Shown: one piece after another, positions 437 through 56,509 of the stretch
Numbering within the stretch: position 1 is the stretch's first letter
How the letters are laid out: every line of letters starts with the position of its first letter
Assembly: GCA_016187335.1 (NCBI GenBank)
Contig: JACPJW010000001.1
Span: 404,170 to 468,169, forward strand
DNA: 64,000 nucleotides
DNA from: Candidatus Aenigmatarchaeota archaeon
GTDB lineage: Archaea; Aenigmatarchaeota; Aenigmatarchaeia; GW2011-AR5
Reading direction: 5' to 3'
The notes under the pieces: model-generated
What the model was told of the DNA's origin: nothing
Databases searched by the model: none
What the model saw: only the letters and a program-made list of their open reading frames with translations
Made by a program: the position numbers and the translations under genes

Positions 437-1658
437 ATAACACCGCTTCCCTCAGCAATTTCAGGTCATTCTTGTAATAGAAATTCCTGATATCATTCAT
501 ACCCATCTTGAGCATTATCAGCCGCTCAAGTCCAAGCCCCCACGCAAGTACAGGAACGTCAATGCCTACGGCTTTGCACATTTCCGGCCTGAATATCCCG
601 GACCCGCCCATCTCAATCCACTCCCCCTTTTCTTCAAAATATATCTCCGGCTCCGTTGACATCTCCGTGTAAGGGAAGTAAGCCGGACGAAACCTTACTT
701 TGAAGCCCATCCTCTGGTAGAATTCCTTCAGGTAGCCCAGCAAATCGCGGAAACCTATGTTTTCATCAAGAACTATGCCTTCTATCTGGGTGAATTCTGC
801 CGTATGCTTGTAATCTATGCTTTCATTGCGAAATGTCTTGCCTATGCAGAAGACCTTTGCAGGCGGCGTAAGCTTGCTCATCTCGCGGATGGAAACTGCT
901 GTCGTGTGCGTCCTTAACACAGCTTGTTTTGCAATTTCCTCGCTCCATTTGTAGCGCCATCCCAGCGAGCCTGTGCCGCCTCCGTTTTCATGAGCAGCCT
1001 TGACCTGATTAACAAGATTTTTGTCAGGTAATTTACATTTTTTAGGGTTTTTCATGTAGAAAGTATCCTGCAATTCCCTGCCTGGATGATCCTGCGGCAC
1101 GAACAGCGCGTCAAAGTTCCAGAAAGAGCTTTCTATCAACGGACCCGACGCTTCCTTAAAACCGAGGTCAAAAAATATATCTCTTATTTTCTGGATATAG
1201 AAAGAAACGATATGCTTTTTGCCGGGCTGAATTTTCTGACCGGGAACTTCAACATTATACGGTCTGAATTTCCCTAGACGCCAGTCCCGGGTTTTTATCA
1301 TTTCTTCCGTAAGAAATATAATTTCCTTTTCAATTTTTCTCGATTTTTCCGCAAGCTTCCTCTGGATCAGGACAGAAAGGATGTTTTCGTCAACTTTCTC
1401 CCCTCTGGATATTTTCTCCAGCGCCAGCTGCTCGGGGAAGCTTTTCGGTTCTTTGGCAAGATGGATTTTGCCTCCCTTCACTTCCACCCAGCCCTTTTTC
1501 TTCGCCCATTGTATGGCTATGGAAAAATTCTTCATCCTCCCTTTCAGCAGGTCAAAGGAAACTGGACCCTCTATAAGCAGCTCAACAAGGTTTTTTTCAG
1601 GCAAGCCTTCTTCTAGGTATTCTTTGCCCTCCTCTGTCAGCGCATACATGATAATCAC
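429..1658 (-). CDS. pheS: Phenylalanyl-tRNA synthetase alpha subunit (archaeal/eukaryotic type)
   Basis: 409 aa ORF; class II aaRS core motifs (FRPAYFPYTEMSTEPE, GWGLGLERL) and archaeal PheS N-terminal domain. Confidence 0.9.
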   Translation of the reverse strand: MIIMYALTEEGKEYLEEGLPEKNLVELLIEGPVSFDLLKGRMKNFSIAIQWAKKKGWVEVKGGKIHLAKEPKSFPEQLALEKISRGEKVDENILSVLIQRKLAEKSRKIEKEIIFLTEEMIKTRDWRLGKFRPYNVEVPGQKIQPGKKHIVSFYIQKIRDIFFDLGFKEASGPLIESSFWNFDALFVPQDHPGRELQDTFYMKNPKKCKLPDKNLVNQVKAAHENGGGTGSLGWRYKWSEEIAKQAVLRTHTTAVSIREMSKLTPPAKVFCIGKTFRNESIDYKHTAEFTQIEGIVLDENIGFRDLLGYLKEFYQRMGFKVRFRPAYFPYTEMSTEPEIYFEEKGEWIEMGGSGIFRPEMCKAVGIDVPVLAWGLGLERLIMLKMGMNDIRNFYYKNDLKLLREAVLWQ

Positions 1659-1702
1659 TTGCTTTTCCGAGTCTTAAATATTGGATTCTGGTAAATTTTT
1701 TA

Positions 1703-8402: not shown

Positions 8403-8521
8403 CGCCCCGGGACGGACTCGAACCGTCGACCTTCTGCAATTAGTCAAGAAATCCAAAAACTTGCTTGACTGTTAACAGCCAGACGCTTTAGGCGTCTATC
8501 TACCTGCTGAGCTACCAGGGC
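8403..8521 (-). tRNA. tRNA, anticodon unresolved, with D-arm intron and a second 27-nt hairpin intron
   Basis: Minus-strand 5' GCCCTGG TAGCTCAGCAGGTAG and 3' GACGG-TTCGAGT-CCGTC-CCGGGGC-G; removing a 19-nt hairpin restores D-stem GAGC; two parses give 73-nt exons but neither yields a canonical anticodon loop. Confidence 0.5.
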
Positions 8522-23951: not shown

Positions 23952-25598
23952 TTACTCCATGTCCATGTCTTCGCCGCCGGGCATTCCGCCAGGGCCGCCT
24001 CTCGGCATGCCGCCGCCGGACTTTGACGTTATGACGTCGTCTATGCGCAGTATCATTTCCGCCGCTTCCGTTGCGGACTTGATGGCCTGCGTCTTTATCT
24101 TCAGCGGCTCGACGACGCCGTTCTTCTTCATATCCTCTACTTTTCCGTTGACAACATCTATGCCGTAAGCGGATTTTCCTTTGTCGTGCAGCGTCCTTAA
24201 CTCTACAAGAAGATCAATAGGATCGCGTCCAGTGCTTTCAGCCAGCGTTCTTGGAATTATTTCAACAGCCTCGGCAAACGAATTTATTGCCAGCTGTTCT
24301 CTTCCGCCGACGGATTCTGCGTATTCCCTGAGCTTGCGGGCGATCTCTATCTCTACGGCTCCGCCGCCGTAGACAACCTTGCCTACTTCCAGGGCAGAAA
24401 TAACACCCAGGACTGCGTCGTCCATTGCGCGCTTCGCCTCGTCAACAACATGCTCCGTTCCGCCGCGCACAAGAATGCTTACTGATTTAGGATCCTTGCA
24501 GTCGCGGACAAAGATCATCTCTTCGCCGGCAATCTTCTGCTCCTCAACTAATCCGGCATAGCCTAAATCATCCTTTGATATCTCTTCCAGGTTCGAAACG
24601 ATGTTGGCGCCCGTGGCTTTTGCCAGCTTTTCCATGTCGCTTTTCTTCACGCGCCTTGCAGCTATAGTGCCTTCCTTGGCAAGATAATGCTGCGCTAAAT
24701 CATCAATGCCTTTCTGGCAGAAAACAACATTGCATCCTGTCGCTGACACCTTCTTTACCATTTCCTTGAGCATCTTTGTTTCCTGCTCGAGAAACGCCTG
24801 AAGCTGGTCAGGTGATGTTATTCTTATTTCCGCGTTCGTTTCGGTTTCCTTTACCTCCAGAGCCACATCCAGCAGCACTATTTTCGCATCCTTGACGCGC
24901 TTTGGCATGTTAGGATGCACAACTTCCTTGTCAATGACAATTCCCTTTATCAGTTCCGTGTCGTCAATTGAGCCGCCCTGCTTCTTCTCTATTTTCACAT
25001 CGTCCTTGTCGATGACAACCTTGCCGTTGTCCTGTTCCGCGACCATCTTGACAGCTTCAACGGCTAATTTCGCCAGGGATTCCTTTGCCGCTTCGCCGCC
25101 CTTCCCTGTCATTGCTGTCATCGCTATTTTCTGCAGCATTTCCGTGTCATTAATGTCAATGTCTTCGCCTATTTCCTGCAAAACTTCCAGCGCTTTTGTC
25201 TTCGAAAGCCTGTAACCCCTTACGATCATCGTGGGATGTATTTCCTGCTCCAGAAGACCCTCTGCTTTCTTCAGCAATTCACCAGCAAGAATTACTGCCG
25301 TGGTCGTGCCGTCGCCGACCTCGTCTTCCTGCGTCTTCGCCACTTCAACAATCATCTTTGCGGCAGGATGCTCTATTTCCATGTCCTCCAGTATTGTCGC
25401 GCCGTCGTTGGTTATGGTGACGTCACCTATAGAATTAACAAGCATCTTGTCCATGCCGCGCGGGCCCAGCGTAGTCCTTACAGACTCAGCAACGGCTTTC
25501 GCTGCCATTATGTTGCGCGACTGCGCGTCCCTTCCAGTGTTCCTCAAAGTGCCTTCCGGCAGGATGAATATAGGCTGTCCGCCAAGCTGGTTCACCAT
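23952..25598 (-). CDS. ths: Thermosome subunit (group II chaperonin)
   Basis: 548 aa; [27 protein letters not shown] and C-terminal GGMPGG repeats. Confidence 0.95.
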
Positions 25599-25750
25599 TT
25601 CAAATACACCTCGTTAATAGAATTTCTTTCCATGCACGCTTTCATTTTTGACGCAACTTTTTCCTAAAAGTTGCCGTATACTTTCATGCACATACATAGA
25701 AGAAGCTAATCTTTAAAAGGGTTGCGGTGCGGCTTAGCGTGTCACACAAT

Positions 25751-26329
25751 TCACAGGAACGACAGGCCGTAGCTTCCCAGATGAAGCCTGTAGTGAGACC
25801 TTACGTTATCGCTTCCAAAATAGTTCAGCAGGCCGAGACTTCTTGCCGCTTTCAGCGCATGAGTCCATGCGAACCTCTCTGAAAATCTTTCGTATTCCTC
25901 ATCCCCGAACGCTTTTATGCAGAATTCATGCACGGCCGCCAGCTGCTCAGAGTAAGACCCTGACAGGCTGCCGTGGCATAGTAAGGCATGGAGCGAGTCG
26001 TAAGTTTTTGCATGTCCTATTTCATGAAAAGACGACAGGATCCTTATCTCCCTTTCCCGCAGTTTCGGAATGCTTATTTGTATCTCCGGCACTGGCCTTA
26101 TGACGCCGTTCTCCCTTATGCAAATTTTGAAATTGGACCTGACAGGAATGAAAGTCCATCTGCCATTTTCCAGCAGATCGTTGAGCCTTATTACGCTTCC
26201 ATTTACACGGTAGTCGAAGAAATAGTTGCCACCTTCATGGGATTTGTCTTTGTAGAATGAAACCCCGTTTCCATTTTGATATTCGATTGAGCCCTCTTCG
26301 TATATTCTTGATGTAGGATTAGTATTCAC
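25751..26329 (-). CDS. HExxH-motif protein, putative zinc metallopeptidase
   Basis: 192 aa; FHEIGHAKTY motif; directly downstream of HTH regulator on same strand. Confidence 0.45.
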   Translation of the reverse strand: MNTNPTSRIYEEGSIEYQNGNGVSFYKDKSHEGGNYFFDYRVNGSVIRLNDLLENGRWTFIPVRSNFKICIRENGVIRPVPEIQISIPKLREREIRILSSFHEIGHAKTYDSLHALLCHGSLSGSYSEQLAAVHEFCIKAFGDEEYERFSERFAWTHALKAARSLGLLNYFGSDNVRSHYRLHLGSYGLSFL

Positions 26330-26331
26330 GT

Positions 26332-27312
26332 TTAGCTTCCATCACCCTTCTTTGCTGCTCTGACAATGTCCCGCTTTGTCATCTCCTTCAGCTCATCGGC
26401 AGGAATAACCGGGATTTCCAGTTCCATTCTTTTCTTCGTGACAACAATGACGGGTTTTTCGGTTATTTCTGAAAACGCCAGCATATATCCCTCGTTCTTC
26501 TCCACTCTTTTCTCGTTTTCTTCAGCATCGGAGAATACCAGAAAACGCTCCTTGTCATGCGTTTTGGCAATGATGTTGAAAGGCGCCTGGTAAACAAAGG
26601 AAGTTCCAAAGCCCTTCCTTTTCAGCTCTTTTGATATTGCCCTTTCAAATGCAGTCCTCGGCTCTTTGCCTGCCTCTTCAAAAGAGAAAGAAGTGAAGTC
26701 AATGCTTCTCGTTACGGAGCCCAGCAGCCGCTCCATTTTCTTCGCTATAACATATTTTGATTTCATCATTTTCCTTTCATGTTCGTAGACGTTCTTCTTT
26801 GTCGTGCCCAGTTTTTCCGCCAGTTCGCTCTGAGAGAATCCCCTGCCCTCTCTGGCATCCCGCAGCAGTTCTGGATCCACTTCGGCAAAAAAGCCGCCCC
26901 TGAACCTGTAAATCAGCGGGTTTATGTTGTGCACAAGAATATTTTCAAGCGTCTTAGGCGTGAAGGTGGGTATATCAAACCTGTCGTATATCACATTGTC
27001 ATGGAGCTTCTCGCGCCTTGTCCAGATGCCTACCAGGGCGGGCGAGGCGTCCAGATTTGATGACAGCGTTTTCAGGTTGTCTGATTGCTCTTCCTGGAAA
27101 GAATCAACGTTCTCAAGAACCTTCAGCAGAATCACTTCCTGCTTCCTGGCTATTATGTCAAAGCACCCGCTGTATTCGCTGTAATCGTAGTCAGACCTTT
27201 CCAGGATACGCCCGATTTCCTCCCTTAGCATGCATAACGTTTTCGGGAAAACTTTAAAACAATAATATCCAAGCAGATATTCAAAGAGCCAATTCAAAAG
27301 AGCTTGAAGCAC
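26332..27312 (-). CDS. HTH (XRE-like) transcriptional regulator with extra domains
   Basis: 326 aa; helix-turn-helix GRGFSQSELAEKLGTTKKNVYEHERKM in the middle of the protein. Confidence 0.6.
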   Translation of the reverse strand: MLQALLNWLFEYLLGYYCFKVFPKTLCMLREEIGRILERSDYDYSEYSGCFDIIARKQEVILLKVLENVDSFQEEQSDNLKTLSSNLDASPALVGIWTRREKLHDNVIYDRFDIPTFTPKTLENILVHNINPLIYRFRGGFFAEVDPELLRDAREGRGFSQSELAEKLGTTKKNVYEHERKMMKSKYVIAKKMERLLGSVTRSIDFTSFSFEEAGKEPRTAFERAISKELKRKGFGTSFVYQAPFNIIAKTHDKERFLVFSDAEENEKRVEKNEGYMLAFSEITEKPVIVVTKKRMELEIPVIPADELKEMTKRDIVRAAKKGDGS

Positions 27313-27332
27313 TTTGTGCTTCGTTCGGCTAT

Positions 27333-27491
27333 GGGCCGGTAGCTCAGTGGTAGAGCACCTGTCTTATACGACGTGTTTTCTTAATTGGAAAAAGAAAACA
27401 TTGCTAAGCCAGCAGGGGGTCGAGAGTCCGATACAAACTTTTCCAAAAAGTTTGATCAAAAGGGAAAGTTGCGGAATCCTCTCCCGGCCCA
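27333..27491 (+). tRNA. tRNA-Ile (anticodon UAU) with anticodon-loop intron and T-loop intron
   Basis: GGGCCGG-TA-GCTC-AGTGGTA-GAGC-A-CCTGT-CTTATA then ~42-nt intron, A-GCAGG; 3' end CTCTC-CCGGCCC-A; exons sum to about 72 nt; T-loop junction ambiguous. Confidence 0.6.
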
Positions 27492-27534: not shown

Positions 27535-28008
27535 TTATCCCTGGTACGTTTGCCTTCTTTCCCTGAACTCCAGTTTTTGCCACGAATCAGAAAGCTTTTT
27601 AGAAACCTTCGACAGATCCGGTTCAAATTCTCCGTTCCAGAAGTCCCAGACCTTCTTGATCCATTCGGCTGTCGCGTTTTCATCCGGCTTGAGCGTCAGC
27701 ATGGTGTTTTCCCATTTCAGGACCTGTATTTTCTTGTACAGCCTGAAAAGCTGCGTTACTTCCCTTTCCGTGAGCATGTTCTGCTCGTAAATGCCGGAAA
27801 ACGAATCGTAACCGGAAATTATGGGCTCTATTATCTTTTCCGTGAACATGAACAGTTTGTCTGACATCTCCGTTCTTATCTCGTCAAACGTCACTTCCTC
27901 GTCCTCAAGCTCCAGCTTGAACGCGGCTTTAAGGTCCGTCAGCTGGGGGAGCCCGAAGCGCTCTTGGATATTTTTGTATTTCTGAAAAGTAGGCTGCATT
28001 TTAGGCAC
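27535..28008 (-). CDS. Hypothetical protein
   Basis: 157 aa ORF with coherent codon usage, no recognised motif. Confidence 0.45.
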   Translation of the reverse strand: MPKMQPTFQKYKNIQERFGLPQLTDLKAAFKLELEDEEVTFDEIRTEMSDKLFMFTEKIIEPIISGYDSFSGIYEQNMLTEREVTQLFRLYKKIQVLKWENTMLTLKPDENATAEWIKKVWDFWNGEFEPDLSKVSKKLSDSWQKLEFRERRQTYQG

Positions 28009-28827: not shown

Positions 28828-28940
28828 GGGCTTGTAGTCTAGAGACCCTTTAGAAAAAGCGTCTACGAAAAGGGTTGGAAAATGGTTATGACGTCGCCTT
28901 CACACGGCGAAGGTCGGCGGTTCGAATCCGCCCGAGCCCA
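28828..28940 (+). tRNA. tRNA-Val (anticodon CAC) with 40-nt D-loop intron
   Basis: GGGCTTG-TA-GTCT-AG [intron 28843-28882] TGGTTA-TGAC-G-TCGCC-TTCACAC-GGCGA-AGGTC-GGCGG-TTCGAAT-CCGCC-CGAGCCC-A; exons sum to 73 nt. Confidence 0.8.
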
Positions 28941-56404: not shown

Positions 56405-56509
56405 GCCGGCGTCGCATAATCTGGTGGTGCACTGATTGCATGCGAAGCAAGTGTATGTCTCGAAAACCAGCGGGCTCTGCCCATGCAGGTTCAAATCCTG
56501 CCGCCGGCG
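56405..56509 (+). tRNA. tRNA, anticodon unresolved, probably intron-containing
   Basis: Acceptor GCCGGCG/CGCCGGC with discriminator G; T-arm GCAGG-TTCAAAT-CCTGC; internal 73 nt could not be folded into a unique cloverleaf. Confidence 0.5.

Follow-up and report, generated by a model that had tools for sequence, protein, structure and literature searches.

A predicted soluble metallopeptidase of a small archaeal family, encoded by an apparent single-gene insertion beside a COG1395 gene

The COG2856/XRE modules, pairs of a metalloprotease and a helix-turn-helix (HTH) protein, are defined by membership of the protease in the family profile, by conserved adjacency or fusion to a small XRE repressor, and by frequent residence in mobile elements together with toxins (PMC2701414, PMC6868357). 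We analyzed a stretch of 64,000 nucleotides (nt), referred to here as the window, from a metagenome-assembled genome of Candidatus Aenigmarchaeota, a DPANN archaeon. A first-pass annotation of the window had tentatively proposed an ImmR/ImmA-type pair: an XRE-type HTH protein of 326 amino acids (aa), encoded by an open reading frame (ORF) with a GTG start (26332..27312, minus strand), and directly downstream on the same strand a 192-aa protein containing HEIGH, also with a GTG start (25751..26329, minus strand). The stop codon of the HTH ORF and the GTG of the 192-aa gene are 2 nt apart, and the two proteins are identical to NCBI HYW26_02590 and HYW26_02585, respectively. Our analysis favors another reading. 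The 192-aa protein is predicted to be a soluble gluzincin-like metallopeptidase of a small, previously undescribed family, its gene appears to have been inserted recently and on its own, and its HTH neighbor, a member of COG1395, is probably incidental.

The 192-aa protein belongs to a family that is difficult to find with indexed searches. A word-indexed homologue search returned only the protein itself, and an exhaustive HMMER search of 1.84 billion cluster representatives was needed to reveal the family. This search found 41 other proteins with E-values of 0.001 or less, including 32 at 1e-10 or less, and most of the matches are 190-290 aa long. We aligned 39 homologues (alignment A1) and used a 12-sequence sub-alignment (A2) to find related loci; when A1 was run as a profile against the word-indexed database, only 12 proteins were returned. 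The gene was also recovered in identical form from five other contigs that came from different sequencing runs. Two long proteins, P0156 (1987 aa) and P0157 (977 aa), were rejected: they are surface proteins of the type IX secretion system with SprB, PKD or Ig repeats, and their matches to the β-region are spurious, arising from repeats or from composition. Pfam, NCBIfam, PHROGs and PADLOC contain no family model for the 192-aa protein or its relatives.

Conservation gives meaning to a motif that would otherwise be unremarkable. HEIGH is present, as first noticed, at residues 102-106 (codons 26012..26026, minus strand). A single HExxH is by itself no better than chance, as 0.37 occurrences are expected from the amino-acid composition of the window's 59 ORFs of at least 100 aa and one was observed. 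The motif is meaningful because every one of the 39 aligned homologues has H102, E103, G105 and H106. At least 90% of the aligned sequences share G20, Y40, N50, E94, E151 and W155. E151 lies in an ERxAW(x)(x)AL motif (E151-R-F-A-W155, codons 25865..25879, minus strand) that is found in every full-length member and is absent only from truncated sequences. The segment that connects the HExGH helix to ERxAW is highly variable in length. The first-pass annotation had named a match to an unrelated family, or the lack of a third zinc ligand, as what would refute it; E151 is a candidate third ligand, and no search placed the protein in an unrelated family.

The predicted structure is consistent with these motifs. 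An AlphaFold2 model computed with A1 has a mean predicted local distance difference test score (pLDDT) of 95.3 and a predicted template modeling score (pTM) of 0.91. It consists of a seven-stranded β region (residues 13-86) followed by helices at residues 94-117, which carries HExxH, 126-141, 143-164, which carries E151, and 173-185. Both the alignment and the model thus have HEXXH on an "active-site helix," the trait of zincins and gluzincins (clan MA), and a conserved Glu on the later helix 143-164, for which we propose a position beside the two His residues. Foldseek found nothing significant for the model in the PDB or BFVD. The protein has no transmembrane segment, and inspection by eye revealed no hydrophobic N-terminal stretch resembling a signal peptide. 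The proposal that the HExxH protein is a metallopeptidase therefore stands as a prediction, based on the invariant motif, the candidate third ligand, and a confident model that places HExxH in a long helix. In the mechanism that we propose, the ligands of Zn2+ would be H102 and H106, both on the active-site helix, and E151, on the "glutamate helix"; E103 would be the general base. An edge strand for substrate binding would come from the N-terminal β-sheet domain (residues ~13-86), and the protein would act in the cytoplasm as a soluble gluzincin-type peptidase.

Some longer members of the family (P0128, P0134, P0138, P0143, P0144, P0145 and P0152) share a conserved C-terminal tail with the motif …dPdPW..R.E.RSW.k… at columns ~360-400 of A1. 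The tail is lacking from the 192-aa protein, and it might have a regulatory or autoinhibitory function in the longer members.

The family has general features in common with ImmA, IrrE and CapP (COG2856, Peptidase_M78). Like them, the 192-aa protein is small and soluble, carries its HExxH on a helix, and has a Glu farther along the chain within a helical E-x-x-A-x motif. The M78 form of this motif is ExEAN, and here it is ERxAW. As in ImmA/ImmR-type pairs, the protease gene closely follows the gene for a protein with an XRE-type HTH, and both are on the same strand. However, there are several differences from ImmA and IrrE. HExxH and the Glu are ~44 residues apart in the window protein, and homologues carry a variable insert of up to ~60 more; the window protein also has a large conserved N-terminal β-domain. 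The profile search suggested in the first pass was run and gave no significant match to Peptidase_M78 in the 39 members. The 192-aa protein has no Pfam match at an E-value of 1 or less, and PF06114 is touched by only two of the 39 members, with a best E-value of 0.013. The capP-type models of PADLOC do not match the family, and the A1 profile did not reach IrrE sequences in the PDB at E-values up to 10.

Other known systems to which we compared the protein are the M48/M56 gluzincins (HtpX, BepA, BlaR1) and the soluble "minigluzincins" proabylysin and projannalysin. Wss1 and Spartan have been grouped with the minigluzincins. The M32 carboxypeptidases (carboxypeptidase Taq family), at ~500 aa, differ greatly from the 192-aa protein in overall architecture, and their likeness to it is limited to the catalytic core and is statistically not significant. 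Sequence echoes of the family below significance are all to metallopeptidases (M78, M32, DUF4344).

The HTH protein is a member of COG1395 and is not an ImmR- or DdrO-type repressor. COG1395 (the PAB2104 family) is an archaea-specific family composed of a PD-(D/E)XK domain, an XRE-type HTH and a degenerate PD-(D/E)XK domain; its function has not been described and no horizontal transfer has been observed (PMC1189080, PMC3424549). The window protein shares the architecture and the restriction to archaea and matches the profile over its full length. NCBIfam PRK04140 aligns to residues 31-314 of the 326-aa ORF (profile positions 8-302 of 317) with an E-value of 2.5e-63 and 214 bits. This score falls short of the 263 bits set as the equivalog cut-off, and the protein is therefore a divergent DPANN version of COG1395. 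Precomputed annotation assigns PF26553 (PDDEXK_19) and HTH_3 to it and to more than 100 homologues. We found more than 120 homologues, all 288-305 aa long, and every one with a named source is from Aenigmarchaeota.

The first description of the HTH protein was correct with respect to the HTH, the location and the strand, but the length was over-extended. The PRK04140 alignment does not begin until residue 31 of the 326-aa ORF, and both the public gene calls (299 aa) and the lengths of close homologues indicate a shorter protein. In addition, an TTTTAAAG box (27252-27259, minus strand) lies ~21 nt upstream of an ATG at 27231, within the supposed first 27 codons of the longer ORF. The box is invariant in the window and in three related loci, L006, L007 and L008 (alignment A4), and is a putative TATA box of the COG1395 gene. 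Based on these four lines of evidence, the real gene is 26332..27231 (minus strand, 299 aa), and the 326-aa length is an artefact that arose because the first in-frame GTG was taken as the start.

The position of the HTH within the protein also differs from that in known repressors. ImmR, DdrO and CapH are small proteins (~110-130 aa); their XRE HTH is N-terminal, and their short C-terminal dimerization domain contains a cleavage loop. In contrast, the partner here is 299 aa and its HTH is central, at residues ~123-171 (26719..26865, minus strand). Pfam HTH_3 matches residues 150-198 of the 326-aa ORF with an E-value of 1.3e-4 and 22.3 bits, just under the 23-bit cut-off, and the PADLOC capH HTH model matches residues 119-198 of the 299-aa protein with an E-value of 1e-6. 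The likeness to the CapH, SinR or ImmR repressors is confined to this HTH segment.

The pairing of the protease with an HTH protein is not conserved. Homologues of the 192-aa protein are found in at least nine other genomic settings, surrounded by unrelated housekeeping genes. For example, a homologue is convergent with Val/Ile-tRNA synthetase in L009 and L016 (L016 is from Woesearchaeota), adjoins RtcA in L011, follows GatB in L013, and lies between NAD synthase and NMNAT in L014, L015 and L021. In L019 and L020 it precedes a GlpX-type FBPase, in L017 (Woesearchaeota) it lies between an HtpX-like protein and a Hef-like helicase, and in L018 it adjoins a membrane protein. There is no COG1395 gene within the ~5-6 kb flanks of these homologues (L009, L011, L013-L021). 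No annotated neighbor has an HTH Pfam domain, the neighbors in L016-L021 being judged by eye only. Thus, the adjacency to an HTH gene in the window appears to be an accident of the landing site rather than a conserved repressor/protease module.

The mobile-element setting that is typical of such pairs was not found either. There is no mobile-element or toxin context at the window locus. No relatives of the protease were found in viral contigs, in PHROGs or, by tblastn, in phage and plasmid collections. Beyond the generic HExxH…E signature, the locus shows none of the properties that define COG2856/XRE modules, and we therefore conclude that the locus is not such a module. In one homologous locus, L020, on a metagenomic contig, the ORF that precedes the protease homologue (1108-1689, minus strand) looks by eye like an IS200/IS605-type transposase. 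Locus L019 is otherwise identical and has SRP54 at this position. No other hint of mobile DNA was seen near a member of the family.

Comparison to the closest loci points to a recent insertion of the 192-aa gene alone. In L006 and L007, 141-151 nt separate the COG1395 gene from the thermosome gene, which comes next. The HTH protein of L006 is 82% identical to that of the window; the HTH protein of L007 is 71% identical and its thermosome 91%. No homologue of the 192-aa protein was detected in L006, L007 or L008 by tblastn. In a three-way alignment of the window with L006 and L007 (A3), a lineage-specific segment of ~614 nt (25731..26344, minus strand) that holds the 192-aa gene replaces 12-19 nt of the relatives, and the boundaries of the indel are clean. 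Homology extends up to ...AAGAAGGG at 26345 and returns weakly at ~25730 and strongly from ~25722, where the conserved promoter region of the thermosome gene lies (CCCTTTTAAAGATTAGCTTC...). The insertion also rewrote the C-terminus of the COG1395 protein from KKG-stop to KKGDGS-stop, and in this the window protein differs from its family. We propose that an insertion of ~600 bp brought in this one gene, precisely between the COG1395 stop codon and the thermosome promoter. A compositional anomaly that might mark recent horizontal transfer was sought in the 192-aa gene and was not found: its G+C fraction is 0.465, that of the window is 0.464, and G+C and third-position G+C both resemble those of neighboring genes. 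By eye, the only terminal repeat at the insertion boundaries is a 6-nt GTGAAT present at both ends of the gene, which we treat as not significant.

The inserted gene is probably transcribed by read-through from the COG1395 promoter. There is no TATA-like box in the 200 nt upstream of its GTG, and the gene begins 2 nt past the COG1395 stop codon. A possible Shine-Dalgarno element, GGTGAT (26341..26346, minus strand), precedes the GTG by 11 nt and falls within the 3' end of the COG1395 gene as modified by the insertion.

Based on these results, we think it probable, with appreciable room for doubt, that the 192-aa protein is a soluble zinc metallopeptidase of a new DPANN family, that its gene is a single-gene insertion, and that the HTH neighbor is incidental. 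Some points weigh against this. The assignment to DPANN archaea (Aenigmarchaeota here and Woesearchaeota elsewhere) is provisional because host taxonomy is known for only three lineages. A remote relationship of the family to M78 or to another family is possible. Finally, the same-strand arrangement and 2-nt spacing make co-expression of the two genes probable, and this leaves a small residual chance of a functional link specific to this lineage.

An ImmR/ImmA-like (COG2856/XRE-type) switch would put the same genes to a very different use. Under stress, the HExxH protease would cleave or sequester the HTH protein and de-repress targets, for example, the downstream thermosome. The strand, spacing and probable co-transcription of the genes would suit such a switch, as would the location of the pair directly upstream of a chaperonin gene, the resemblance of the HTH domain to XRE/CapH-type HTHs, and the combination of HExxH with a downstream Glu, which is the catalytic signature of ImmA and IrrE (PMC6868357). 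However, the supposed repressor is COG1395, which is conserved across archaea whether or not the protease is present, and the nearest relatives have no protease gene at the locus. The protease homologues in other settings are without an HTH or COG1395 neighbor, there is no significant match to Peptidase_M78 or capP, and a context of mobile elements, toxins, phages or plasmids is missing. We therefore regard a switch of this type as highly improbable. A related idea is that in this one lineage the inserted gluzincin became part of the COG1395 transcription unit, directly upstream of the thermosome promoter, and now acts on the COG1395 protein. If true, this would amount to an archaeal counterpart, evolved independently, of the ImmA/ImmR or IrrE/DdrO switch and would give the first functional handle on the COG1395 family. 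In a weaker version, the family would be a DPANN-specific accessory protease in the interaction between symbiont and host. We view these ideas as a long shot.

Two further alternatives concern the 192-aa protein itself. It could have a zincin-like metal-binding fold without being a classical peptidase. For example, it might bind a partner without cleaving it, as reported for the COG2856 protein Rir, hydrolyze some other substrate, or act as a SprT/Wss1/ArdC-type protease on DNA-bound proteins. We consider this unlikely, though not so unlikely as to be neglected. The other alternative is that the 192-aa ORF is a chance frame in which HEIGH is a coincidence. A near-chance HExxH count and an initial k-mer-based search that found nothing but the protein itself might suggest as much, but the 32 strong homologues with conserved length and motifs, the very confident AlphaFold2 model, and the identical gene on contigs from separate sequencing runs refute it, and we give a spurious ORF virtually no credence. 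We favor a genuine zinc metallopeptidase whose gene landed by COG1395.

The results have several consequences. The tempting but wrong annotation "ImmR/ImmA-like module in an archaeon" is removed, and the HTH partner is identified as the pan-archaeal COG1395. A small family with an invariant HExGH…ERxAW signature that is not in Pfam, NCBIfam, PHROGs or PADLOC is a candidate new peptidase family. Its members are scattered sporadically among genome-reduced DPANN archaea, whose accessory enzymes are poorly understood. The locus also offers a clean natural example of a single gene inserted into a conserved intergenic spacer.

The flanks of the 192-aa gene are composed of housekeeping genes. Downstream is the thermosome gene (Cpn60_TCP1; 23952-25598, minus strand), and on the other side are the COG1395 gene, a tRNA-Ile gene divergent from it, and genes of the mevalonate pathway. 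The latter form a mevalonate-pathway-like cluster whose counterparts in L007 have MVD-like and GHMP-kinase domains. The neighborhood also contains a conserved 157-aa ORF, a NUDIX gene, and a secretion/pilus ATPase-like ORF that was identified by eye from the sequence. In each of the four Aenigmarchaeota loci, an ORF of 154-159 aa that matches no Pfam or NCBIfam family occupies a syntenic position next to tRNA-Ile and COG1395 (window 27535-28008, minus strand; L006 999-1463; L007 5228-5707; L008 2628-3095). It is a conserved hypothetical protein of this Aenigmarchaeota clade.

The tRNA-Ile(UAU) gene of the window (27333-27491, plus strand) has a second intron. In the relatives (L006 1527-1673, L007 5792-5914, L008 3170-3293), the gene scores 52-58 bits and has a single intron in the anticodon loop. 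The window gene is missed by ARAGORN and scores only 20.7 bits with Rfam, below threshold, because an additional 45 nt (27433-27477) interrupt the T-loop (59/60). Excision of these 45 nt in silico restores a perfect cloverleaf. In RNAfold predictions, both junctions fall in 3-nt bulges around a 4-bp helix, a canonical bulge-helix-bulge (GAGAG/CUCUC stem, UCCG/CGGA helix). The inserted 45 nt share homology with the sequence that flanks this tRNA gene on its 3' side in L006, L007 and L008 (none of 500 shuffles reached the score), which suggests recent gain of the intron by local duplication or rearrangement.

The tRNA annotation of the window genome is likely to be incomplete. ARAGORN at default settings reported no tRNA in the whole window. 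Rfam found others at 8403-8521 (minus strand), 28872-28940 (plus strand) and 56405-56509 (plus strand), and those of 119 and 105 nt are long enough to contain introns.

The arrangement around tRNA-Ile(UAU) may bear on the role of COG1395. The COG1395 gene divergently adjoins this decoder of AUA in all four loci (window 26332-27491, L006 1527-2666, L007 5792-6891, L008 3170-4274). The combination of DUF1743 and tRNA_anti is what we take to be the architecture of TiaS, the modifier of the AUA-decoding tRNA-Ile2. In other archaea, COG1395 has been reported to co-occur with a DUF1743 + tRNA_anti protein (PMC3424549). These associations may hint that COG1395 has an RNA-related role, in AUA decoding or tRNA processing, rather than one in the regulation of transcription.
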